Positions 273-61,400 are shown, counted from the stretch's first letter. The stretch is 64,000 nt of DNA from Candidatus Nanohaloarchaea archaeon (GCA_013343275.1 CP046106.1:800001-864000), one strand, 5' to 3'. The notes: generated by a model not told the origin, from the letters alone. Numbers and translations: made by a program.

Positions 273-542
273 ATGGAAGATGACAAAGCTTGGGAAATAA
301 TCGAGAACCCTCACATGACAGAACAGGCAATGGACATGATTGACGAAGAGAACAAGCTTGTTCTCATGGTAGATCTCGACGCAAACAAGAACCAGGTAGA
401 AGACGCAGTACAGACACTATTTGATGTTGAAGTAACCAAAGTAAATACCAACATCACACCGCAGGCCCAGAAAAAGGCCTACGTAAAACTCTCACAGAGC
501 GACTCCGCGATGGATGTCGCAACCGAACTAGGTATGATGTAA
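273..542 (+). CDS. rpl23: 50S ribosomal protein L23
   Basis: PHMTEQAM..ENKLVLMVD..ANK..KKAYVKL; operon position. Confidence 0.96.
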   Translation: MEDDKAWEIIENPHMTEQAMDMIDEENKLVLMVDLDANKNQVEDAVQTLFDVEVTKVNTNITPQAQKKAYVKLSQSDSAMDVATELGMM

Positions 543-549
543 GAATGAA

Positions 550-595
550 GAAAATCGCAGATTTTCAGAGTAGCAGAAAACACAGAGGTGTTTTC
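550..595 (+). repeat. Double-hairpin intergenic element, copy 1 (rpl23-rpl2)
   Basis: GAAAATC-gca-GATTTTC, linker agagtagca, GAAAACAC-agag-GTGTTTTC; SD GAGGTG at 585-590 inside hairpin 2; mini-ORF 545-601. Confidence 0.85.
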
Positions 596-600
596 AACTA

Positions 601-1302
601 ATGGGAAGTCCACTAAGACAACAACGAAGAGGAAAAGGATCTCCGAACTACCAGTCTAACTCTCATAAATCCAAGGGAGATGTAGAGACAAAAAGAGCAG
701 AAACTCAGGGAACAGTAGTAGATCTAGTACACGACCCAGGAAGAACATCCCCTGTAGCAGTAGTAGAGTTCGAGGACGGAGAAGAAAGAAACATCCTAGC
801 GCCAGAAGGCCTAGCAGTAGGCGACACAATCGAGCTAGGAGTATCCGCAGAAGTCAAACCAGGAAACACACTTCCTGTAGGAGAGATCCCAGAAGGAGTA
901 CCAATCCACAATCTAGAACTCCAGCCGAACGACGGCGGCCAGATCGCCAGAAGCAGCGGAACATACGCATTCGTCGTAACACACGAAAAAGATGGGGTAA
1001 GAGTAAAGCTTCCAAGCGGAGACTTCAAAAAGTTGAATACTAGCTGCCGTGCAACAATTGGAAAAGTAGCAGGCGGCGGAAGAAAGGAGAAACCGTTCGT
1101 AAAGGCCGGAAACAAGTCCAAGGCTATGAAGGCCAGAGGCAAGGCCTATCCGAAGGTCTCCGGCGTAGCAATGAACGCAGTAGACCACCCATTCGGTGGA
1201 TCCGCAAAACCAGGAAAAGCAAAGACAGTTTCCAAGCACGCCTCACCAGGGCGTAAAGTCGGAAACATCGGCGCAAGCCGCAGCGGAAAGAAGAAAGAGT
1301 AA
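601..1302 (+). CDS. rpl2: 50S ribosomal protein L2
   Basis: QRRGKG, HDPGR, GVAMNAVDHPFGG motifs. Confidence 0.98.
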   Translation: MGSPLRQQRRGKGSPNYQSNSHKSKGDVETKRAETQGTVVDLVHDPGRTSPVAVVEFEDGEERNILAPEGLAVGDTIELGVSAEVKPGNTLPVGEIPEGVPIHNLELQPNDGGQIARSSGTYAFVVTHEKDGVRVKLPSGDFKKLNTSCRATIGKVAGGGRKEKPFVKAGNKSKAMKARGKAYPKVSGVAMNAVDHPFGGSAKPGKAKTVSKHASPGRKVGNIGASRSGKKKE

Positions 1303-1313
1303 GGTGATCAATT

Positions 1314-1694
1314 ATGGCAGACGAAGACTTTACATTCAGAGGAAAAACAATGGACGAACTCCGAGACATGGATCTCGAAGAGTTCGCCGACCTCCTCGAT
1401 GCAAGAGGCCGAAGAAAGATTCAGAGAGGCCTCAGAGAGGACGAGGAGAAGATCCTCGAAGATCTCGAGGAAAAAGACACAGTCAAAACCCACAGAAGAG
1501 GGATGATAGTAGTACCGAAGATGGTAGGAAACACCCTTCAGGTCTACAACGGACAGAGGTTCATCGAAGTAGAAGTCGAGGCACAGATGCTCGGCCACTA
1601 CCTCGGAGAATTCGCAAGAACCCGAAAAGAAGTCGAACACAGCGCACCAGGACTTGGTGCAACACGTTCGTCCAAACACATCCCGCTCAAGTGA
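1314..1694 (+). CDS. rps19: 30S ribosomal protein S19
   Basis: FTFRGK, KTHRR, YNG, MLGHYLGEF, GATRSSK. Confidence 0.97.
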   Translation: MADEDFTFRGKTMDELRDMDLEEFADLLDARGRRKIQRGLREDEEKILEDLEEKDTVKTHRRGMIVVPKMVGNTLQVYNGQRFIEVEVEAQMLGHYLGEFARTRKEVEHSAPGLGATRSSKHIPLK

Positions 1695-1702
1695 TTTAAC
1701 CT

Positions 1703-2113
1703 ATGGAACTTGACGCACACCAAGCATTTGCACAGGGCCGAAACATGCCTGTATCATGGAAGGACTGCACAGAAGTCGGACGCTTCATCAAAGGCGACTC
1801 TGTAGAGAAAGCAGAGAGAAAGCTCGAGAAAGTAATCGAGAAAGAACTCGCAGTACCCTACACAAAGTTCGACAGCGATGTCGGCCACAGAAGCGGACAT
1901 GGAGACTCCGGAAGATACCCGGAGAAAGCATCCAAGGAAATCCTGGAAGTTCTCAGATCTGCAGCATCAAATGCAGAGCACGAAGGCCTCAACCCTGGTG
2001 CACTTGAAGTACAGAACGTCATCACCAACAAAGGCCAAGAAATGAGAACTCCCGGAAGACATCCTGGAGAGACAAAAGCAGCACACGTAAAAATAATTGT
2101 AGGAGAGCGATAA
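1703..2113 (+). CDS. rpl22: 50S ribosomal protein L22
   Basis: VPY..GHR..GRYPEKA..NAE motifs; operon position. Confidence 0.96.
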   Translation: MELDAHQAFAQGRNMPVSWKDCTEVGRFIKGDSVEKAERKLEKVIEKELAVPYTKFDSDVGHRSGHGDSGRYPEKASKEILEVLRSAASNAEHEGLNPGALEVQNVITNKGQEMRTPGRHPGETKAAHVKIIVGER

Positions 2114-2120
2114 TATGACC

Positions 2121-2166
2121 GAAAATCAGAGATTTTCTGGGCATGCAAAAGACCGAGGTGGTCTTT
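2121..2166 (+). repeat. Double-hairpin intergenic element, copy 2 (rpl22-rps3)
   Basis: GAAAATC-aga-GATTTTC, linker ending gca, AAAGACC-gaggt-GGTCTTT; mini-ORF 2115-2168. Confidence 0.8.
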
Positions 2167-2168
2167 GA

Positions 2169-3233
2169 ATGCAAGAGAAAAAATTCATTCAGAAAGGAGC
2201 ACGTAAGGTAAGACTTCACGAGTTCCTTGAAGAAGAACTTGAAGGCGCAGGATACAGTCACGCAGACCTGGTAAGAACACCTACATCAGCAAAAATCGTG
2301 ATCTACGCACAGAGACCGGGCCTCGTCATCGGAAGAGGGGGTTCCAGGATCAAGGAACTCACAGCAGATCTCGAAGAAGAATTCGACTTCGATAACCCAC
2401 AGATCGAGGTTAACGAGATCGAAGAACCTGATGCAGATGCAGAAGTAGTAGCAAAGAGCATCGCAAACTGGCTTGAGAAAGGAGGCCACGCCAAACGTGT
2501 AGGATACACCTACATCAGAAGAATGAAGGAAGCAGGAGTAACAGGAGCAGAAGTAGAGATCACAGGAAAGCTCTCCGGAAACAGAGGCCGTACAGAGAAG
2601 TTCTCATTCGGATACGTAAAGAGATGCGGAAACACCTCTAAGGAAAACGTGGATAAAGGATACGAACTGGCCCGTACAAAGCCAGGAGCAATCGGAGTCA
2701 AAGTACGCATGATGAAGGAAATGCCGGACTTCATGCACAGAGACGTCGATGTCAGCGAGGAAATCCTCCACGAATCAGAAGTCTCAGAAGAATCACAGAT
2801 CAAGTCCGACAGAATCCAGCAGGTACTGGAAGAAGCAGAAAGCATGACTTCCTCCGAACTTGAGAGAGCAATCGAAGAGAAGGCAGAGACAATAGAGACA
2901 GGAGACATCTCCAAAGAAGAAGTCAGAGAGGCCTTCGAAGCAAGAGAGGAATCAGAGCCAGAAGAAGTCGAAGCCGAAGAACCAGAAGAGTCTGAATCTG
3001 AAGAAGCATCTTCTGAGGAGCAATCTTCCGAAGAGGAAGAGGACACAGAAGACTCATCTGAACAGGAAGAGACTGAAGAGACGGATGTAGAGGAAATTGT
3101 CTCAGGAACCATCAGCGACGCAAAGGACGCAATCTCAGAAATGGAGGATCCTGACTACGGCGCAATTCTACAGGCCGAGAAAGCCAACAAAAACCGAACA
3201 ACCTTTATTGACTGGCTTGAATCCCAGCAATAA
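2169..3233 (+). CDS. rps3: 30S ribosomal protein S3 with long acidic C-terminal extension
   Basis: KH motif RPGLVIGRGG, ITGKL, GAIGVKVR; about 165 extra C-terminal residues. Confidence 0.96.
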   Translation: MQEKKFIQKGARKVRLHEFLEEELEGAGYSHADLVRTPTSAKIVIYAQRPGLVIGRGGSRIKELTADLEEEFDFDNPQIEVNEIEEPDADAEVVAKSIANWLEKGGHAKRVGYTYIRRMKEAGVTGAEVEITGKLSGNRGRTEKFSFGYVKRCGNTSKENVDKGYELARTKPGAIGVKVRMMKEMPDFMHRDVDVSEEILHESEVSEESQIKSDRIQQVLEEAESMTSSELERAIEEKAETIETGDISKEEVREAFEAREESEPEEVEAEEPEESESEEASSEEQSSEEEEDTEDSSEQEETEETDVEEIVSGTISDAKDAISEMEDPDYGAILQAEKANKNRTTFIDWLESQQ

Positions 3234-3262
3234 ATAAAAGGAACTAACAGAAGTGATTAACC

Positions 3263-3460
3263 GTGTCAGAACTTTCAATCTCTGAACTCAGAGAAAAAGA
3301 CGCCTCCGAACTCAAACAGGACCTTACAGATCTACAGAAGGAACTTGTACAGGAAAGAGGCCAGATAGAAGTCGGAGGATTTGCCGACAACCCTGGCCGA
3401 CTCGGAGAAATGAAGAAAACCATCGCACGTATCAAAACAGTTCTCAACGAACGCCAATAA
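3263..3460 (+). CDS. rpl29: 50S ribosomal protein L29
   Basis: ELR..NPGR..KKTIARIKTV. Confidence 0.95.
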   Translation: MSELSISELREKDASELKQDLTDLQKELVQERGQIEVGGFADNPGRLGEMKKTIARIKTVLNERQ

Positions 3461-3469
3461 AGAATTATA

Positions 3470-3778
3470 ATGTCAGATCTCAATCCCAACAGCGGACTAC
3501 CCGACGAACTCGACGTCACCGACCAACTAGCAAGATCAGAACAGAAAATCACTGTAAAGATCGACACAAGAAGCTTCGGCAAAGAAGTCACAGTAGTCGA
3601 AGGCCTTGGAGAAGAAATCAACCTCGATGACCTATCCTCCAAACTCAAGTCCAAACTTGCATGCGGAGGAACAGTCAAAGACGGCCACATCGAACTCCAG
3701 GGCGACCACACACGTCGAATCGAAGACGTCCTCGCAGACCAGGGATTCGACAAAGAAAACATCGAAATCCAGAGATAA
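3470..3778 (+). CDS. Translation initiation factor aIF1 (SUI1 family)
   Basis: FGKEVTVVEG, LKSKLACGGTVKDGHIELQGDH. Confidence 0.95.
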   Translation: MSDLNPNSGLPDELDVTDQLARSEQKITVKIDTRSFGKEVTVVEGLGEEINLDDLSSKLKSKLACGGTVKDGHIELQGDHTRRIEDVLADQGFDKENIEIQR

Positions 3779-3872
3779 AATCATCCTCTGGGCCTGTTCA
3801 CATCTCCCTTTTTTACTTTCTACCTAGAAACCAACAGTTTCAAGTTGATACCTGCATAAAATCTAACTGGCT

Positions 3873-4616
3873 ATGAAGGCAACAATTCTGGGTTCAGGAG
3901 ACCCTCTAGGAATGCCGGTACCTATGTGTAAATGCAAGTACTGTAGAAAAGGCCCTGAAAGATTGAGAGCAGGCCTTAAGGTGGAGACAGAGGATTCAAC
4001 AGTTGTTTTCGATATAGGCCCTGATCTCCGTCAACAGCTTATCTCAACTGATACTTCGGATGTAGATGCCTTTTTCGCAACTCACGCTCATTTCGATCAC
4101 TTTGGAGGCCTTCCTGAATTAAGTAATCTTGACGTATTTGCTGATGCCGAAATCTCTATCTATGGTAGTGAAGAGGTTCAGAACTACATTGAAGATGTTT
4201 ACAGCTGGATAGATATCGATTACACAGTCTTCGAAGGCAGTACAGAGATCGGAGATCTAACTGTAGAGGCCTTCCCGGTAGAGCACTCGGAGTTCCTTCC
4301 AATGCAGGGTTACGCCGTTGAAAGCTGGGGCAAGAAGGTTGTGTACATACCTGATCTCAAATCCCTTCCGGAAACAGATGTCTACAGGGATGCAGACGTT
4401 CTATTTATTGATGGAATGTACCTGTTCGAGAAACACATGGAAGATGACGAGGATCACGCAGCGAAGGAGGAATTAAAGGCCGAGATAGAGAAATGCAACG
4501 CAGAAAAAGTAGTGCTCTTAGGGATGTCGGAACACTTCAACGAAATGACTGTGGAAGAAGAGAAAGAAAAAACCAGGTACGAGATAGGGAAAGACTTCAA
4601 AGAATACTCTCTCTAG
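3873..4616 (+). CDS. MBL-fold metallo-hydrolase, PhnP-like
   Basis: ILGSG..G.P...CxCxxC N-terminus, THAHFDH metal motif. Confidence 0.88.
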   Translation: MKATILGSGDPLGMPVPMCKCKYCRKGPERLRAGLKVETEDSTVVFDIGPDLRQQLISTDTSDVDAFFATHAHFDHFGGLPELSNLDVFADAEISIYGSEEVQNYIEDVYSWIDIDYTVFEGSTEIGDLTVEAFPVEHSEFLPMQGYAVESWGKKVVYIPDLKSLPETDVYRDADVLFIDGMYLFEKHMEDDEDHAAKEELKAEIEKCNAEKVVLLGMSEHFNEMTVEEEKEKTRYEIGKDFKEYSL

Positions 4617-4625
4617 TTAACTAAT

Positions 4626-4901
4626 ATGCCAATAACACCAGAAAACCTCCCGAAACACGAACTCATAGGCCTCCATGTAGAGGTAGTTGAGTCAACAGAT
4701 GAGACTCTCGAAGGCCTTGAGGGAGAGGTTATGGATGAAACCAAGTCCATGCTGAGAATCGACGGGAAACAGATGCAGAAAAAGAACTGCACGTTTCTCT
4801 TCGAGATACCTTCAGGAGAGGAGGTAGAGGTAGATGGGGAGCTTATTGCGAAAAGGCCTGAAGAGCGTACAGGCATGAAACTGCCGGAAAAATACCGGTA
4901 A
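4626..4901 (+). CDS. rnp1: Ribonuclease P protein component 1 (Rpp29/Pop4)
   Basis: HELIGL.VEV, G.V.DET, RPEER; usual position before S17. Confidence 0.93.
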   Translation: MPITPENLPKHELIGLHVEVVESTDETLEGLEGEVMDETKSMLRIDGKQMQKKNCTFLFEIPSGEEVEVDGELIAKRPEERTGMKLPEKYR

Positions 4902-4974
4902 AGGCCTTTCTTTGAGTTCCACTTACTACTTCAAAGTACCCTTTTAAAGTTTGTCTTTGAATGTGTTCTTACGA

Positions 4975-5123
4975 ACCTCAAAACTTGATTGAGGTCTTGA
5001 TAACCGCTGGAAGTCGAGTCTTTGGCTCGATACTTTCGGTGGTCTGCTTGGAAAACCCACGTTTGTGAGTGTTTTTGCTGCAGACTCTCCGATTTGCTAT
5101 TTCTGGCGGTTGTAGAACCTCCA
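4975..5123 (+). ncRNA. Putative structured RNA or 5' leader of the rps17 transcript
   Basis: Four predicted hairpins; the helix at 5003-5043 has G-U pairs that work only on the + strand; TATA-like TTTTAAA at 4942-4948. Confidence 0.5.
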
Positions 5124-5170
5124 ATCAGATCAATAAACAAACAATTAGACAATCGAAAGGTGAACAAGGC

Positions 5171-5461
5171 TTGACTGAAACAAATGAATCCAGCGAATAC
5201 CCAATCAGGGGCGGAGTATTTACAGGAACAGTAGAATCCACGAAAATGCAGAAATCCGCAACTGTACGATGGGAACACACACAGGAAATTCCGAAATACG
5301 AGAGAAAAGAGAGAAGAAACACAAAGATCACAGTCCACGTCCCTGAAGACATGGAGATCGAGGAAGGCGACACAGTAAAGGTCGGAGAGACCAAGCCAAT
5401 CTCAAAAACCAAGAGCCATGTAGTAATGGAAAAAATAACCGACGAAGAAAACGAGGAGTAG
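5171..5461 (+). CDS. rps17: 30S ribosomal protein S17
   Basis: RG.VF.G.V.S.KM, PKYER.ERR, GETKPISKTKS; TTG start at 5171 after SD AGGTGA (track start 5069 is too long). Confidence 0.95.
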   Translation: MTETNESSEYPIRGGVFTGTVESTKMQKSATVRWEHTQEIPKYERKERRNTKITVHVPEDMEIEEGDTVKVGETKPISKTKSHVVMEKITDEENEE

Positions 5462-5468
5462 ATTCTAA

Positions 5469-5867
5469 ATGAAGCCACTAGGAGCAAGCATTACAAGAGG
5501 CCTGGACCAGGGCGCAGAACTAACATGCGCAGACAACTCCGGAGCTAAAAAACTGAAGATCATCGGAGTTAAAAGCCAGAAAGGCCGAAGGTCAAGAAGA
5601 AACTCCGCAGGAATCGCAGACAAAGTAGTAGTAAGAGTCCTCAAAGGAGACGAGGAAACAAAACACGAAATATTCGAAGCAGTAGTTGTCAGACAGAGAC
5701 AGGAATTCGAAAGACCAGAAGGAACACGAGTAAAATTCGAAGACAACGCAGCAGTACTAGTAGAAGAAAACGGGCTTCCAAAAGGTTCAGTAACCCGAGG
5801 CCCAATTGCAAAAGAAGTAGTACAGCGATACTCCCCGATCGGGAAGATCGCATCAAAGGTGGTGTAA
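5469..5867 (+). CDS. rpl14: 50S ribosomal protein L14
   Basis: CADNSGAK, FEDNAAV, GPIAKE. Confidence 0.97.
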   Translation: MKPLGASITRGLDQGAELTCADNSGAKKLKIIGVKSQKGRRSRRNSAGIADKVVVRVLKGDEETKHEIFEAVVVRQRQEFERPEGTRVKFEDNAAVLVEENGLPKGSVTRGPIAKEVVQRYSPIGKIASKVV

Positions 5868-5871
5868 CGAT

Positions 5872-5914
5872 GAAAATCGCAGATTTTCGGAGTAGCAGAA
5901 AACAAGGTGTTTTC
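5872..5914 (+). repeat. Double-hairpin intergenic element, copy 3 (rpl14-rpl24)
   Basis: GAAAATC-gca-GATTTTC, ggagtagca, GAAAACA-agg-TGTTTTC; mini-ORF 5870-5920. Confidence 0.85.
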
Positions 5915-5919
5915 AACTA

Positions 5920-6558
5920 ATGAGCAACAACGAATGGAGCAGAAGCTGGAACTCAAGTAAGAACCCGACGAAGCAGAGAAAATACCGTAGAAACGCACCA
6001 CAGCATGTAAAAGATAAACTAGTGTCAGCAAATCTGGCCTCAGAACTTAGAGAAGAGCTAGGAACCAGAAACCTCAATCTCAAAGTAGGAGACAGAGTAG
6101 AGATCATGAGAGGCGACGACAAAGGAACTTCCGGAGTAATCAGCAGCATCGACAGAGAGAACGGAACAGTAACAGTAAACGGCGTAGAGAACGAACGTAC
6201 AGATGGCACATCCAGAGAAAAAACACTACAGCCATCCAACCTCCAGATCCAGGCACTCAACCTCGAAAACGTCTCAAGAATCGAAGCCTACGATGTAGAA
6301 GATACAGAAGCAATCGAAGTAGATGAAGAAGAACTAGAGGAACTTGAGGAAGAAGAGGAAGAAAATGCAATGATGCAGCAAATGCAGGGCGGAGGAGAAG
6401 CCGCAGACATCAGTGAAGAAGAACTCGAAGAGATTGAAGAAGAAATAGAAGAAGAGGAAACTGAAGCTGAAGAAGAGAAAGACACCGAATCCGAAGAGGA
6501 TTCAGACGAAACCACAGAAGAATCCGATGAAGAATCGGAAGAGAAAGGTGAGCAATAA
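5920..6558 (+). CDS. rpl24: 50S ribosomal protein L24 with acidic tail
   Basis: S..P.KQRK...NAP, KOW motif GDRVEIMRGD.KG, PSNL. Confidence 0.95.
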   Translation: MSNNEWSRSWNSSKNPTKQRKYRRNAPQHVKDKLVSANLASELREELGTRNLNLKVGDRVEIMRGDDKGTSGVISSIDRENGTVTVNGVENERTDGTSREKTLQPSNLQIQALNLENVSRIEAYDVEDTEAIEVDEEELEELEEEEEENAMMQQMQGGGEAADISEEELEEIEEEIEEEETEAEEEKDTESEEDSDETTEESDEESEEKGEQ

Positions 6559-7215
6559 ATGGGATTCCAAAAACGACTATCAGCACCAAAACACTATCCT
6601 ATCGACAGGAAAAACAACTCTTACGTAGTAGAACTCAAAGGTTCAAGAAGCAAAGACCAGGCTATTCCAACAGCACTATTCCTTAGAGATGTGCTTGGAT
6701 ACGCAGACACAGTAAGCGAAGCCAAGAAAATAGTAAACGATGGCAAAGTCCAGAGAAACGGCGACACAGTAAGAGATATCAAAGAAGGCCTAGGAGTACT
6801 CGACGTAGTCGAAGTAGACGGCCTCGAAGAGACATACAGAATAGTAAAAGACAGCAAAGGCCTCAAATTCATCGCAGTAGAAGATGACAAGGTCCTTGCC
6901 AAGGTAACAGGAAAGAGAGCAGAAGGAGATGAATACGTTTACAGCCTCCACAACGGCGAGAACTACAGAACCAAAGATGAGTTCGAAGTTCAGAGCTCAC
7001 TGATCTTCAACGGAGGAGTCAAGGAAGTACCTCTTGAAGAAGGCGCAGAGGTTCTAATTACAGGAGGCCAGCACGCAGGAGAAACTGCAGAGCTAGTAGA
7101 AGTTAACAGAAGTGGCCTCAAAACCTCAACAGCAACAGTTGAAGAAGCCGACAGACAGTTCGATACACGGCTTGAAAACATTGTAGCAGTTGAAGACGTC
7201 AAGGTGACAGAATAA
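6559..7215 (+). CDS. rps4e: 30S ribosomal protein S4e
   Basis: KRLSAP, LRDVLGYA, C-terminal KOW ITGGQHAG. Confidence 0.95.
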   Translation: MGFQKRLSAPKHYPIDRKNNSYVVELKGSRSKDQAIPTALFLRDVLGYADTVSEAKKIVNDGKVQRNGDTVRDIKEGLGVLDVVEVDGLEETYRIVKDSKGLKFIAVEDDKVLAKVTGKRAEGDEYVYSLHNGENYRTKDEFEVQSSLIFNGGVKEVPLEEGAEVLITGGQHAGETAELVEVNRSGLKTSTATVEEADRQFDTRLENIVAVEDVKVTE

Positions 7216-7727
7216 TGACTAACGAGATGAAGCAGATAGAGATTGCAAAAATAACAGTAAATACCTCGGCTGGAGAGGTAGGAGACGAAGTAGAGAAAGG
7301 ATTTACACTTCTCGAAAAGCTTACCGGGAAGCAGCCGGTCAGAACATCCTCGAAAGACGCATCCAAAACGTTCGGACTGAGAGAAGGCCTGAACATTGGA
7401 GCAAAAGTAACACTTCGAGGAGAAGAAGCAAGAGAGTTCCTGGAAAAAGTACTACCTGCGGCAGACAACCAGATCTCTGCAGAATCATTCGACGGAAACG
7501 GAAACTTCGCATTCGGAATTGGAGAATACATCGATGTACCAGGAATGGACTATGATGCCGATATCGGCATGAAAGGATTCGAGGTAGTGGTCAACCTGGA
7601 GAGACCAGGATACAGAGTAAAGCGGAGAGATCACAAACCGGATGAAATCGGCAAAGACCACAAAGTCGATGACGAAGAAGCCAAGGACTTCGTCGAAGAA
7701 GAACTTGGAGCAGAGGTGGTAGAATAA
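7215..7727 (+). CDS. rpl5: 50S ribosomal protein L5
   Basis: IGAKVTLRG, FDGNGNFAFGI.EYID.PG..YD..IG. Confidence 0.97.
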   Translation: MTNEMKQIEIAKITVNTSAGEVGDEVEKGFTLLEKLTGKQPVRTSSKDASKTFGLREGLNIGAKVTLRGEEAREFLEKVLPAADNQISAESFDGNGNFAFGIGEYIDVPGMDYDADIGMKGFEVVVNLERPGYRVKRRDHKPDEIGKDHKVDDEEAKDFVEEELGAEVVE

Positions 7728-7733
7728 TGATTA

Positions 7734-7780
7734 GAAATTCGGAGAATTTCATGATCACGCAGAAAACACGAGGTGTTTTC
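7734..7780 (+). repeat. Double-hairpin intergenic element, copy 4 (rpl5-rps14)
   Basis: GAAATTC-gga-GAATTTC (compensatory change), linker ending gca, GAAAACAC-gag-GTGTTTTC; mini-ORF 7727-7786. Confidence 0.85.
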
Positions 7781-7782
7781 GA

Positions 7783-8007
7783 GTGAGCTACGAAGCAGTA
7801 CTGGAACAGATCAAACACAAGAAAGGAAAAAGACAGAAATTCGAGAAACACAACGCTCCAAAGGAAAGAGACTACGGAAAATCCAAGAAAGAATGCAGAA
7901 GATGCGGAAGAACAGGTAGAGGAGTCATCAGCAAATACGATCTCAACTACTGCAGACAGTGCTTCCGTGAAATCGCAGAAGAACTCGGATTCGAACAGCT
8001 CAACTAG
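7783..8007 (+). CDS. rps14: 30S ribosomal protein S14 (Zn-binding)
   Basis: CRRCG...[17 protein letters not shown]; GTG start. Confidence 0.95.
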
Positions 8008-8019
8008 GTGACAAAGAAA

Positions 8020-8409
8020 ATGCAGCAAGATACATTCAGCGACGCAATGTCCTCCATCAACAACGCAGTAGATGCAGGCAACGAATACGCAACAATCAGT
8101 CCAACAAGCAGCCTGGTCAAGAACCTACTGCTTAAGCTACAGGAACTGGAATACATCGGCGTTTTCGAATATGTAGAAGACGGCCAGGGAGGCAAATTCC
8201 GAGTAGAAGTCAAAAACCAGGTAAACGAATGCCAGTCCGTAAAACCACGGTTCTCCGTACAGAACGAAGAATACGAGAAATGGGCCAAGAGATACCTACC
8301 GGCTCAAGGATTCGGAGAGCTACTGGTAACCACAAGCCACGGCCTCATGACACACTACGAGGCCCGTGAAGAAGGAATCGGCGGAAAACTACTAGGTTAC
8401 GTCTACTGA
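8020..8409 (+). CDS. rps8: 30S ribosomal protein S8
   Basis: KPRFSV, YLPA..FG.L.VTTS.G.MTH.EA...IGG.LL.YVY; ATG at 8020 after SD AGGTGA. Confidence 0.96.
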   Translation: MQQDTFSDAMSSINNAVDAGNEYATISPTSSLVKNLLLKLQELEYIGVFEYVEDGQGGKFRVEVKNQVNECQSVKPRFSVQNEEYEKWAKRYLPAQGFGELLVTTSHGLMTHYEAREEGIGGKLLGYVY

Positions 8410-8424
8410 AGGTGAACAAGAAAA

Positions 8425-8958
8425 ATGACAGAACTAACATACGAGCTACCAGAAGGATTCGACGTAGAATACACAGATGACGGAGTCCTAAAGGTAGAAG
8501 GAAACGGAGAAGAAACAGAGAAGCAAATCCAGCACTCGCTGGTAGAAGTAGAAGTAGACGGAGATACAGTAAAGTTCACGCCACTAAGAGAGAAGAAAGA
8601 TATAGTCAGCGTGGCAAAGACATTTAGATCCCACCTAGAAAACATGGTAGAAGGCCTGCAGAACTCGCATGTCTACCATCTAAAAGGAGTATACGCACAC
8701 TTCCCGATGACAATCAAGAAGGAAGGCGATGAAGTAGTAGTCGAGAACTTCATGGGAGAAAGACACCCAAGAAGAGCAGACATCATGGAAGGCGTAGACG
8801 TAAACGTAGACGGCGACGAAATCACAGTAAAAGGCCCTAACAAGGATAAGGTAAGTCAGACAGCAGCACGGATCGAACAGCTTTCCCGCAAAGGAAACCG
8901 CGATCCACGTACTTTCCAGGACGGAATCTACATAACAGAGGTGACTCGAAGTGAGTAA
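8425..8958 (+). CDS. rpl6: 50S ribosomal protein L6
   Basis: YAHFPM, NFMGE, DPRTFQDGIYI. Confidence 0.97.
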   Translation: MTELTYELPEGFDVEYTDDGVLKVEGNGEETEKQIQHSLVEVEVDGDTVKFTPLREKKDIVSVAKTFRSHLENMVEGLQNSHVYHLKGVYAHFPMTIKKEGDEVVVENFMGERHPRRADIMEGVDVNVDGDEITVKGPNKDKVSQTAARIEQLSRKGNRDPRTFQDGIYITEVTRSE

Positions 8959-9286
8959 AGACTTCAAAAGACAGGAAACACACAAGAGAAACAGAGTAAA
9001 GAGCTCATGGAGAAAGCCTATCGGCCACCACTCCAATGCACGGCTCAAGAAGAAAAGCGCCCAGAAAATGCCAAAGGCAGGATTCAGAACGCCTAAGGAA
9101 GATAGAGGCAAACACCCTTCAGGATACGAAGAAGTACTTGTACACAATACTGACGATCTTGAGGAAGTAGATTCAGAGACCGAAGCTGCACGGATCGGCT
9201 CCACAGTAGGAGGCCGCAAAAGAGAACAGATAATCGAGAAAGCAGACGATCTTGAAATCAAAGTACTGAACAGAGGTGAAGAATAA
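8951..9286 (+). CDS. rpl32e: 50S ribosomal protein L32e
   Basis: FKRQE, WRKP.G, HPSG.EEVLVHN, VGGRKR. Confidence 0.96.
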   Translation: MSKDFKRQETHKRNRVKSSWRKPIGHHSNARLKKKSAQKMPKAGFRTPKEDRGKHPSGYEEVLVHNTDDLEEVDSETEAARIGSTVGGRKREQIIEKADDLEIKVLNRGEE

Positions 9287-9726
9287 TGGATCTAAAAAAC
9301 CAGAGAAGAATGGCAGCAGACATCATGGATGTCGGAGAAGACCGCGTATGGATCGATCCTGACAACCAGGAGAAAGTAGATGAAGCAATTACACGTCAGG
9401 ATATCAGAAACCTGATCGAAGGAGACACCATTCAGAAGAAAGAAAAGAAAGGAACAAGCAAAGGCCGAGCACGAGAGAAAAAGAAGCAGAAGAAGAAAGG
9501 ACGCAGGAAAGGCCAGGGCAGCAGACAGGGAAAGAAAGGAGCCCGTAAATCCGACAAGAAGAAATGGATGGAAAATATTCGAGCAATCCGATCAGAGCTC
9601 AAAGAAATGAGAGATAACGAAGAAATTACACAGGAACAGTACAGAGACCTGTACGACAGAGCAAAGGGAGGATTCTTTAGAGACACAAAACACCTCAAAA
9701 ACTACGTAGAGAACAAAATGGAGTGA
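9286..9726 (+). CDS. rpl19e: 50S ribosomal protein L19e
   Basis: RVWIDP, AITRQDIR, G.GSR.GKKGAR, AKGG.F. Confidence 0.97.
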   Translation: MDLKNQRRMAADIMDVGEDRVWIDPDNQEKVDEAITRQDIRNLIEGDTIQKKEKKGTSKGRAREKKKQKKKGRRKGQGSRQGKKGARKSDKKKWMENIRAIRSELKEMRDNEEITQEQYRDLYDRAKGGFFRDTKHLKNYVENKME

Positions 9727-9731
9727 GTACA

Positions 9732-10241
9732 ATGGCAGAGACATCAAATTACAAAGTACCTTTCAGAAGGAGAAGAGAACAGAAAACAGACTATGAACAA
9801 CGGCTGAAGCTGGTTAAATCTGGAAAACCACGAGCAGTAGTAAGAACAAGCAACCAGCACACAAGATCACACCTTGCACACTACAAGCGAGAAGGTGACG
9901 TAAACGAGGCCCAGACACTCAGCAAAGAACTAGAAGAATACGGCTGGGAACATAACACAGGCAACCTGCCAGCAGCATACCTGACAGGATACCTGACAGC
10001 CAAAAAAGCAGACTCAGAAGAAGCAATCCTCGACATAGGTCTCAGGGAACAGAAAACAGGAGGCCGAATCTTCGCAGCAGTAAAAGGAATGAGAGACGCA
10101 GGCCTTGAAGTACCTGCAGGAGAAGAAGTATTCCCTGCTGAAGGAAGAATTAGAGGAGAACACATCGAAGAAATGAAAGAAGACTCAAACATTACAGAAA
10201 ACTTTGAAGAAGTCAAAGAAAACATCGAAGGTGAATTTTAA
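9732..10241 (+). CDS. rpl18: 50S ribosomal protein L18
   Basis: PFRRRRE.KTDY..R, NLPAAYLTG, ILDIG. Confidence 0.97.
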   Translation: MAETSNYKVPFRRRREQKTDYEQRLKLVKSGKPRAVVRTSNQHTRSHLAHYKREGDVNEAQTLSKELEEYGWEHNTGNLPAAYLTGYLTAKKADSEEAILDIGLREQKTGGRIFAAVKGMRDAGLEVPAGEEVFPAEGRIRGEHIEEMKEDSNITENFEEVKENIEGEF

Positions 10242-10912
10242 TGGCAGAACAGGAAATAGAAGAAGAAATCTGGACTCCAAAGACAAAACTCGGTAGAGCA
10301 GTGGCCAACGGCCAGATCACAACTATTGAACAGGCTCTAGACCATGAAAGACCGATCATGGAGCCAGAGATCGTCGACCAGCTGACAGATCTGGATGAAG
10401 AAGTAATGCTTATCGGAGGAACTCCGGGAAAGGGAGGCGGAAAAAGAAGAACAGTCTCCAAGAGAACAGCAAGAATGCACAAGTCAGGCGCAAGGTACAG
10501 TTCCAACGCAATGACAGTACTAGGAAACCGTAACGGAGTAATAGGACTAGGCGTAGGAGAATCAGACGATACACGAGCGGCAATCGACGACGCAAATAGA
10601 AACGCCAAGCTTAACCTGATCAAAGTACCTAGAGGAAACGGATCATGGGAGGACAAAGGAGATCACAAGGCCTCCATCCCATTCCAGGTAGAAGGAAAGT
10701 CAGGATCTGTAACAGTAGAGCTTAAACCTGCTCCAAGAGGAACAGGCCTAGTCGCATCCGACGACGTCAAGAAAGTAATGGAGCTCGCAGGAATCGACAA
10801 CATCTGGGTCAAATCCAGAGGAACAACAAGAACACGAGAGAACCTGATCAGAGCAACATTCAACGCTCTGGAGAAACTCTCCGAATATCAGCATGATGGT
10901 GACAACCAATGA
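10241..10912 (+). CDS. rps5: 30S ribosomal protein S5
   Basis: W.PKTKLGR, GSWE, PAPRGTGLV, N...ATFNAL. Confidence 0.97.
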   Translation: MAEQEIEEEIWTPKTKLGRAVANGQITTIEQALDHERPIMEPEIVDQLTDLDEEVMLIGGTPGKGGGKRRTVSKRTARMHKSGARYSSNAMTVLGNRNGVIGLGVGESDDTRAAIDDANRNAKLNLIKVPRGNGSWEDKGDHKASIPFQVEGKSGSVTVELKPAPRGTGLVASDDVKKVMELAGIDNIWVKSRGTTRTRENLIRATFNALEKLSEYQHDGDNQ

Positions 10913-10913
10913 T

Positions 10914-10956
10914 GAAAATCGCAGATTTTCGTGATGCAGAAAACACAGGTGTTTTC
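10914..10956 (+). repeat. Double-hairpin intergenic element, copy 5 (rps5-rpl30)
   Basis: GAAAATC-gca-GATTTTC, gtgatgca, GAAAACA-cagg-TGTTTTC; mini-ORF 10909-10962. Confidence 0.85.
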
Positions 10957-10958
10957 GA

Positions 10959-11306
10959 ATGATTGCAGCAATCAGAGTAAGAGGAGACGTCGACGCAAGC
11001 GACAAAGCAAGTGCAACACTTCAGAACATGAACCTTGAAAGGAGAAATCAGTGCGTAGTATACGAGGACACTGATTCGATTCGAGGAATGCTGAACAAGG
11101 CCAAAGACTACATCACATATGGCCAGGTATCTGATGAAGCGCTTGAACTGCTTGAAGAAAGGAAAGGATCAGAAATTGAATCTGGCGATGTAATTAATCT
11201 AACACCTCCAAGCAGAGGTTATAAGGATACGAAGAGAAATGTAAATCAGGGCGGAAGCCTTGGTGAAAGAGAAAACCTAGATAACCTGATCGAGAAAATG
11301 GTGTAA
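10959..11306 (+). CDS. rpl30: 50S ribosomal protein L30
   Basis: AAIRVRG, GML.K.KDYITYG, L.PP..G, GG.LG. Confidence 0.94.
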   Translation: MIAAIRVRGDVDASDKASATLQNMNLERRNQCVVYEDTDSIRGMLNKAKDYITYGQVSDEALELLEERKGSEIESGDVINLTPPSRGYKDTKRNVNQGGSLGERENLDNLIEKMV

Positions 11307-11339
11307 AGGCCTTTTCTCAAATTTTAAGGTGAACTATCA

Positions 11340-61241: not shown

Positions 61242-61313
61242 GCCCTCATGGTCTAGTGGAAAGACGGCACCTTGCGGAGGTGCAGATCCAGGGTTCAAAT
61301 CCCTGTGAGGGCG
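61242..61313 (+). tRNA. tRNA-Arg(GCG)
   Basis: Acceptor GCCCTCA/TGAGGGC, anticodon arm GCACC-ttGCGga-GGTGC, TTCAAAT loop; TTTTAAA about 30 nt upstream. Confidence 0.95.
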
Positions 61314-61400
61314 TCTTGTTACGCTCTTGACGAAACTTCAAGAGAAGTTTCTGTGAACGCACAAAATCTCTGATTTTGGAGTGCCATGCAATCAGCCATT

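Follow-up and report, generated by a model that had tools for sequence, protein, structure and literature searches.

Double-hairpin repeats built as bridging mini-ORFs at operon junctions of a nanohaloarchaeal genome: candidate relays of translational coupling

The 64,000-nt stretch of DNA analyzed here (the window; CP046106.1:800001-864000 of assembly GCA_013343275.1, Candidatus Nanohaloarchaea archaeon) lies inside a single 915,886-bp contig of a 0.92-Mb genome and carries a ribosomal-protein (r-protein) operon. Five junctions between genes of this operon, identified by Pfam, are occupied by copies of one element consisting of two adjacent hairpins. Each copy is also an open reading frame (ORF; mini-ORF below): its ATG abuts or overlaps the stop codon of the upstream gene and precedes hairpin 1 by 2-7 nt, the frame of 16-19 codons remains open through both hairpins, and its own stop overlaps or abuts the start codon of the next gene. 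A sixth family member, found with the covariance model (R2) described below, lies away from any such junction. The members in the window are as follows.

545..601, + strand: copy 1, rpl23 to rpl2; 18-codon mini-ORF closed by TAA, MKKIADFQSSRKHRGVFN; hairpins at 550-566 (1) and 576-595 (2, with GAGGTG); stop and rpl2 start (ATG, 601) overlap as TAATG
2115..2168, + strand: copy 2, rpl22 to rps3; 17-codon mini-ORF closed by TGA, MTENQRFSGHAKDRGGL; hairpins at 2121-2137 (1) and 2148-2166 (2, AAAGACC/GGTCTTT); the rps3 ATG, at 2169, abuts the TGA
5870..5920, + strand: copy 3, rpl14 to rpl24; 16-codon mini-ORF closed by TAA, MKIADFRSSRKQGVFN; hairpins at 5872-5888 (1) and 5898-5914 (2); stop and rpl24 start (ATG, 5920) overlap as TAATG
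7727..7786, + strand: copy 4, rpl5 to rps14; 19-codon mini-ORF closed by TGA, its ATG overlapping the rpl5 TAA; hairpins at 7734-7750 (1, GAAATTC/GAATTTC) and 7762-7780 (2); stop and rps14 start (GTG, 7783) overlap as GTGA
10909..10962, + strand: copy 5, rps5 to rpl30; mini-ORF of 16-17 codons closed by TGA, (M)MKIADFRDAENTGVFE, its ATG overlapping the rps5 TGA; hairpins at 10914-10930 (1) and 10939-10956 (2); stop and rpl30 start (ATG, 10959) overlap as ATGA
61329..61381, - strand: sixth family member, not at a junction and lacking a Shine-Dalgarno (SD) sequence, just past the 3' end of a tRNA gene (61242-61313); model R2, E=5.9e-5 (2.8e-5 in a later run)

The hairpin-1 pattern GAAAWTC-N3-GAWTTTC matches the window five times, always on the + strand and within the r-protein operon, against an expectation of 0.10; none of 100 shuffles reaches five. 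Hairpin 2 ends 2-5 nt 5' of the downstream start codon in each of the five copies, and GGTG occupies its loop and 3' arm; because the 3' end of this genome's 16S rRNA reads GGATCACCTCC, GGTG is a fitting SD sequence. All four hairpin arms are versions of a single 7-mer, GAAAAYC/GRTTTTC. The minimum free energy (MFE) structure computed with RNAfold is two adjacent hairpins in 10 of 10 copies tested, five of them from the window, with z-scores of -1.3 to -4.0, so that some single copies are unremarkable by energy alone. The initial annotation of this locus, which placed five double-hairpin copies at these positions, with the SD sequence sequestered in hairpin 2 and pairing kept by compensatory changes, is borne out on all three points: the placement of the SD sequence is correct as a fact of sequence, and the changes in copies 4 and 2 are real. 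The linker that it described as always ending in GCA does so in the five window copies and not in the wider family, and its count of five stands for the operon, not for the window; it also passed over the reading frame that each of the five forms. An Rfam match, which it had named as a possible refutation, did not appear: no family matches the element in the window or in 400-11200, the only matches at gathering thresholds across the whole window being two tRNAs, and the only one at E<=1 in 400-11200 being unrelated and due to chance (E=0.84).

The mini-ORFs are a property of the family and not of these five copies only. In a table of 18 copies lying between co-directional genes of this genome (17 junctions at which the element abuts the downstream start, together with the copy between rpoA'' and nusA), a frame opens 2-12 nt 5' of hairpin 1 in 17, with a length of 14-19 codons in 15 of these 17; element copies share common masters, and these counts are not of independent events. 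Comparison of the r-protein operon in the window and in 20 relatives yields 28 element-bearing junctions. A script flagged bridging ORFs with the stop at -4 to +1 nt from the downstream start at 23 of them; manual reading adds one (rps8 to rpl6 in L022, where the stop abuts the downstream GTG), for 24 of 28, and at two more the mini-ORF ends 7 nt before the start, for 26 of 28 within 7 nt. At the upstream end the mini-ORF ATG lies at -4 to +13 nt from the preceding stop codon. No bridging ORF is found in any of eight element-free spacers of 37-59 nt. Where elements stand in tandem, at rps5 to rpl30 (100 nt; G006, L022) and rps19 to rpl22 (119 nt; G008, L025), one frame of 34 codons is kept throughout. 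Stop/start overlaps of 4 or 1 nt, or very short distances, which mark coupled gene pairs, are thus present at the mini-ORF junctions. Hairpin 1 is read in three different frames among the copies (KIADF, ENQRF and RNSENF), and the length of the linker varies in such a way that hairpin 2 and its SD sequence always stay in a single frame; conservation thus lies in base pairing and in the geometry of starts and stops, not in a peptide.

Both hairpins covary, and the structure is under selection. A covariance model was seeded with two in-register copies and then realigned (R1), and a second round gave R2; consensus folding based on MAFFT recovers hairpin 1 only, because the variable linker misaligns hairpin 2. 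In a 20-row alignment 97.6% of cells pair (shuffles, 87.0%), and both partners change in 10 of the 15 pairs; in a 65-row alignment (copies from this genome, the operons of the 20 relatives, two congeners and named public records) the figures are 98.4% and 83.3%, with 12 of 15 pairs changing on both sides in 122 cells, both alignments being fitted to the model, and so biased toward its structure, and composed of rows that are kin by descent, so that cells are not independent. None of 500 shuffles of the 65-row alignment reaches 98.4%, and controls in which it was slid give 28-76% pairing and 1-10 cells changed on both sides. Stems are also conserved in place: four orthologous pairs of copies within the genus (rpl22 to rps3, L44e to S27e, rrp4 to rrp41 and spt4 to S24e) show no change in ~120 stem bases, their differences being confined to loops, linkers and tails, while divergence in the coding DNA on either side is ~9-15% for the first three and, for spt4 to S24e, 27% upstream and 16% downstream. 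On a rough estimate from these small numbers, the chance of no change in 120 bases at 11% divergence is <1e-5. A fifth pair, the copy between MGMT and SerRS, has a compensatory stem change from A-U to G-C. A comparison of the two strands counts 32 internal G-U pairs and 3 A-C mismatches in the sense direction and 25 and 7 in the antisense direction; wobble pairs turn up in MFE folds whichever strand is taken.

The element is not confined to ribosomal-protein genes. The hairpin-1 palindrome has 13 exact matches in the genome, and the reversed control none. Model R2 gives 41 matches at E<=1 counting both strands; a manual count of the distinct places gives 23 with E<=0.01 and 27 with E<=1. At 17 of these 27 the element abuts a downstream start codon between co-directional genes, and all 17 copies are sense-oriented and sit exactly on the stop/start. 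A plain repeat, scattered in many copies in random orientation and context, is what the initial annotation had held would count against its proposal; the copies are indeed many, but those at junctions are not random in either respect. Besides the five window junctions, those adjoining r-protein genes are rps12 to rps7, L44e to S27e and spt4 to S24e. The others are rpoE to spt4, rrp4 to rrp41, E1alpha to E1beta, atpA to atpB, atpI to atpK, oapB to oapC, aminotransferase to prephenate dehydrogenase, ferredoxin to FAD-oxidoreductase and topoVI-B to A (hairpin 1 only). Occupied junctions lie mostly between subunits of complexes. The ten remaining places are behind ftsZ (two copies in tandem), behind rps8e, past the 3' ends of two tRNA genes, between convergent ORFs (two), between MGMT and SerRS, after rpoA'' and at one further site; the second of the tRNA-adjoining copies is at 542403-542455 of the genome (L013:2403-2455). 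For copies away from junctions the scores of the two strands are nearly equal. The rpoA'' copy and window copies 1 and 3 share ~90% identity with each other, which fits recent copying.

Occupancy is patchy across the lineage. Of 61 related genomes, counting this one, 40 have model matches at E<=0.001, and the number per genome runs from 0 to 34: 29 of 36 in this genome's own family (f1), 4 of 10 in f3, 6 of 8 in f4, none in the single genomes of f2 and f5, and none in four genomes of four out-group families; the reversed hairpin-1 control finds nothing in any genome except for one match in one. In the operons of the 20 relatives, spacers of ~50 nt fall at different r-protein junctions in different genomes, and their element junctions include rpl29 to sui1, rps17 to rpl14, rps4e to rpl5, rps14 to rps8, rps8 to rpl6, rpl6 to rpl32e, rpl32e to rpl19e and rpl30 to rpl15, among others. 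The congener G001, whose rpl5 is 94% identical to that of this genome, has only the rpl22-rps3 copy of the five in the window, differing from it at three positions, none in a stem; its other four junctions are empty, with spacings of 1 nt at rpl23 to rpl2 (TAAgATGGGA), 7 at rpl14 to rpl24, 0 at rpl5 to rps14 (TAAATG) and -4 at rps5 to rpl30 (GTGA). The congener G002, with rps5 98.6% identical, has an ATGA overlap and no element at rps5 to rpl30; since G001 is empty there too, copy 5 is specific to this genome. A copy very similar to copy 4, with the same GTG start, occupies rpl5 to rps14 in G008 (L025). Of five distinct copies in G001, two are held in common with this genome and two are at sites that are empty here; of 16 in G002, four are common, eight are at sites empty here (including rpl18 to rps5 and rpl6 to rpl32e of the same operon), one faces an unrelated spacer and one is an extra unit within the copy at spt4 to S24e (L057/L055), where a second double hairpin of 48 nt is nested in the 5' arm of hairpin 1 (compare genome 52910-52964).

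These presence/absence differences are recent gain or loss, precise deletion between flanking repeats having to be allowed for, and with them the suggestion in the initial annotation of a REP/MITE-like repeat (repetitive extragenic palindrome; miniature inverted-repeat transposable element) is upheld at the scale of the genome and of the lineage. Of 13 alignments of empty and filled sites, five were misaligned and were left out (c3, c4, c5, L041, L054), and copy 5 was read by hand; the eight clean pairs show inserts of 50-57 nt on or just after the start codon. Copy 1 is an insert of 57 nt, and copy 5, by manual reading, one of 50 nt with AATGAT on both borders. The border repeats computed in the eight pairs are 0, 1, 1, 1, 1, 2, 5 and 6 nt (TAATGC and AATGA, for example), which is not a target-site duplication of fixed length. 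The transposase search covered three Pfam families: Y1_Tnp (PF01797) is absent from this genome and from all 36 f1 genomes, occurs in 3 of the 61 overall and was matched in 6 of 14 reference genomes used as a control; TnpB (PF07282) was not found in this genome, two sub-threshold matches being TFIIB and a zinc-ribbon protein; and DDE_Tnp_1 (PF01609) has no match in this genome. The outer arms GAAAAYC...GRTTTTC form an inverted repeat of 5-7 bp, but they are also arms of two separate hairpins.

The reading that we favor, at a probability of roughly 0.6, is that these are REP/MITE-like mobile repeats of ~50 nt, spread throughout the lineage at operon junctions, and that each would act as a relay of translational coupling. 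As the abstract of PMC10666635 has it, both Haloferax volcanii and E. coli nearly lose coupling between termination and reinitiation when a spacer of ~20 nt is present; no spacing is commoner than an overlap of -4 or -1 nt, and genes for subunits of heteromeric complexes are enriched in such overlaps. Strict coupling was seen at 13 of 14 overlapping pairs according to the abstract of PMC6728339. Given the ~20-nt limit, a bare insertion of 50 nt should uncouple the genes on its two sides, whereas an insertion that is itself an ORF, with -4 or -1 overlaps and an SD sequence, would not. The mini-ORF ATG would make use of an SD sequence already present in the 3' end of the upstream gene, so that a ribosome finishing that gene could reinitiate on the mini-ORF, melt hairpin 2 in the course of translating it, terminate on top of the next start codon and reinitiate there a second time with the SD sequence of hairpin 2. 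In predicted folds an extended hairpin 1 often includes the AUG, and the SD sequence, at times along with the start codon, is covered by hairpin 2 and an outer helix in which the linker pairs with the start region. Initiation by free ribosomes should accordingly be poor, the mini-ORF AUG being hidden from them by the one structure and the downstream SD sequence and start by the other, and the downstream gene should rely on those that come from upstream; it would in this way remain coupled to the upstream gene despite the insertion of 50 nt. How the repeat copies itself may be a matter of microhomology at the stop/start motif, which is our guess.

Several observations weigh against the coupling relay. 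Ten of the 27 places in this genome lack an SD sequence and are off start codons, which suggests that the hairpin unit has a role outside translation. The 28 junctions compared among relatives include exceptions: two mini-ORFs stop 7 nt short of the start, one overlaps it by 8 nt, and two have no usable ATG. A purely selfish element would not account for the in-place conservation of stems, nor does a relay call for it; such conservation could reflect another RNA-level role or gene conversion between copies.

The same observations bear on a different account, in which the hairpins are a signal for RNA processing, stability or termination in the manner of bacterial REP and BIME repeats, and the mini-ORF and SD sequence are only what an operon demands of an insertion that it tolerates. 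The places at gene and tRNA 3' ends or between convergent genes, the stems conserved in place between species with their compensatory change in one orthologous pair, and the arrays of 2-7 related hairpins in other DPANN and methanogen records, mostly without SD sequence or ATG, all speak for it, and E. coli REPs, as described in PMC12306157, occupy the same two niches, 3'-terminal and intercistronic. It leaves unexplained the exact frames from ATG to stop in three registers and the single long frame of the tandem elements. We consider it unlikely. The specific forms that it might take are protection of upstream mRNA segments from 3' exonucleases, marks for cleavage, or pausing or termination of transcription at the T4 run in each arm; against the last, termination in archaea is usually ascribed to oligo-T runs longer than T4. 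An RNA signal is compatible with, and does not exclude, relayed coupling. A feature acting as DNA, either paired palindromes for a dimeric DNA-binding protein or single-stranded hairpin ends for a Y1 transposase of the IS200/IS605 or RAYT type (as in REPIN or PATE), would fit the derivation of all four arms from one 7-mer, the short terminal inverted repeat of the outer arms, border repeats without fixed duplication (as expected of Y1 transposition), the nearly equal scores of non-junction copies on both strands, and G-U and A-C counts that do not favor the sense strand; the absence of Y1_Tnp from this genome and its family, and of TnpB and DDE_Tnp_1 from this genome, stands against it, and it does not predict strict sense orientation, exact reading frames or an SD sequence, which together make it improbable.

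The r-protein feedback site proposed in the initial annotation, or an operator for some other RNA-binding protein acting on the downstream cistron as a dedicated host regulatory site, had in its favor a covarying motif common to five r-protein junctions with the SD sequence inside hairpin 2. We now regard it as highly improbable, since the element is also found at non-ribosomal junctions and behind tRNA genes and gene 3' ends, the model built from the copies showing no restriction to r-protein genes; since the junctions that it occupies vary between genomes within one operon, with four of the five window copies missing in G001; since seven of the 36 f1 genomes have no match at all; and since no Rfam r-protein leader, or any other family, matches. 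That the mini-ORFs encode a family of functional small peptides is barely credible: the frames are open, with an ATG, an upstream SD sequence and a defined stop, and two types recur, MKIADFR..GVF(N/E) and M(T/Y)ENQRFSG..RG(G/D)(L/F), but both types are the same nucleotides in different frames, with the linker shift restoring the frame at hairpin 2, conservation follows base pairing rather than residues, and the peptides at other junctions are unrelated. Two further candidates were tried and rejected. A switch of the ermC kind was set aside on finding that, hairpin 2 is still the MFE structure in 10 of 10 copies once hairpin 1 has lost its 5' arm and loop. A C/D-box small RNA (sRNA), suggested by ATGATGA in copy 5, was dismissed on inspection by eye: copies 1-3 offer no C and D boxes that could serve, and hairpin arms stand where the guides would have to lie.

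A more far-reaching version of the relay, which we offer tentatively and hold to be possible rather than probable, is that the elements are self-propagating coupling cassettes. They would spread without a transposase through the microhomology that (T)AATG(A), at both of their ends, provides with ordinary operon junctions; their own start, SD sequence and stop would let them colonize even essential ribosomal operons; and the host would keep the hairpins, possibly to enforce upstream-dependent translation of complex subunits, its retention of them being suggested by stems conserved in place and by the compensatory change. The unit may also belong to a wider archaeal REP-like kind. An exact-pattern scan (hairpin 1 and the 5' arm of hairpin 2) over the genomes of 185,579 species returned 61 loci, each seen with flanks of 100 nt. 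By manual count, ~20 are junction-type copies with SD sequence and ATG in records labelled by their depositors as Nanohaloarchaea, Nanohalobium, Nanosalina or similar; ~16 are in metagenome-assembled genomes of Woesearchaeota, Nanoarchaeota and Pacearchaeota, five in methanogens and one in Haloferax; the remainder are bacterial repeats of separate kinds or probably match by chance. At the DPANN and methanogen loci (Methanobacterium included) the GAAAATC-N3-GATTTTC hairpin stands in arrays of the sort already mentioned, each with an A/U-rich stem of 7-9 bp closed by G-C and a loop of 3 nt (L066, L095, L108, L111, L074, L081, L117 and others). GAAAAYC-N3-GRTTTTC may be a wider archaeal REP-like unit, the search pattern itself forcing the similarity of these loci.

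If relayed coupling is correct, a mobile repeat can invade the stop/start overlaps of a streamlined genome, its most constrained non-coding positions, without breaking the expression of operons, and what looked like the signal of a dedicated ribosomal-protein regulon is explained away. The elements would then offer natural material on which to test how distance limits termination-reinitiation coupling in archaea. For annotators, 'intergenic' gaps of 45-60 nt in these genomes are probably translated; the presence or absence of elements also serves as a fine-scale marker of strain and species history in the lineage.

Some other features of the operon merit recording. The spacer between rpl30 and rpl15 (window 11307-11339) is 33 nt long and has AAGGTGAACT 5' of the ATG; G002 (L052) has a full element at this junction, and the spacers of this genome and of G001 (L017) might be decayed copies. 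The distance from sui1 to rnp1, the gene of an RNase P protein, is 847 nt (window 3779-4625) and holds an ORF of 247 amino acids (3873-4616); in relatives the gap ranges from -1 to 3246 nt, and gene content thus varies at this point of the operon. A non-coding stretch of 269 nt before rps17 (window 4902-5170), with several inverted repeats and a TTTTAAAG box, has no Rfam match; the gap is kept in most same-family relatives, at 162-539 nt in most and >1 kb in two, and could be an internal promoter or a novel RNA. The products of rps3 (354 amino acids) and rpl24 (212 amino acids) have long Glu/Asp-rich C-terminal tails beyond their Pfam domains (window 2760-3230 and 6290-6555), which fits a salt-adapted proteome.

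Among known systems the REP and BIME repeats are the nearest in habit: they are transcribed with operons, often form paired hairpins and differ in copy number between relatives, and so does this element. Like REP/BIME and REPINs, short multicopy palindromic repeats that lie intercistronically or at 3' ends (PMC12306157), it is found at 23 places (E<=0.01) in 0.92 Mb, all between genes or behind the ends of genes and tRNAs. It differs from them in its A/U-rich stems of 7-8 bp, in the absence of a RAYT or Y1 transposase from its carrier family f1, and in that its junction copies are exact bridging mini-ORFs that bring the downstream gene's SD sequence. The conserved GTAG or CGTC tetranucleotide that REPs carry at one end, according to the abstract of PMC3733652, was not seen in the alignments of the element, whose copies begin (ATG)..GAAAAYC and end GRTTTTC(N2-5)ATG. 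Neisseria REP2 and similar inverted repeats of Borrelia also lie directly upstream of genes, and REP2 brings a ribosome-binding site and ATG (PMC3184786); compared by description, those repeats are bacterial and longer, with a promoter at the head of a gene, whereas the present element is archaeal, lies inside operons on stop/start overlaps and would itself be an ORF coupled on both sides. With MITEs it shares small size, lack of autonomy, structure, presence or absence between close relatives, and nested and tandem insertions, but it shows no fixed-length target duplication, has no parent insertion sequence among the three transposase families searched, and is sited on start codons rather than within genes. 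Rickettsia palindromic elements (RPEs) are tolerated inside translated sequence, as these copies are.

The ends of the mini-ORFs show the -4 or -1 overlaps that are typical of coupled ATGA/TAATG pairs (Huber et al., PMC6728339 and PMC10666635). The known cases, however, couple two real genes directly; here a filler ORF of 14-19 codons on a mobile repeat would relay coupling across ~50 nt. The leader-peptide attenuators of ermC and cat likewise combine a short ORF with two hairpins, the second of which hides a downstream SD sequence; this element, in contrast to the ermC type, has no alternative 2:3 pairing, and its mini-ORF spans both hairpins up to the downstream start. Nor, by the defining features that were looked for, is it a REP-RAYT system or a MITE, there being neither a Y1 transposase nor a fixed target duplication. 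No description of the element was found in the literature, searched mostly at the level of titles and abstracts and exclusive of supplements. Its kind, REP/MITE-like, is already known; what is unusual here is a structured repeat that is built as a bridging mini-ORF.

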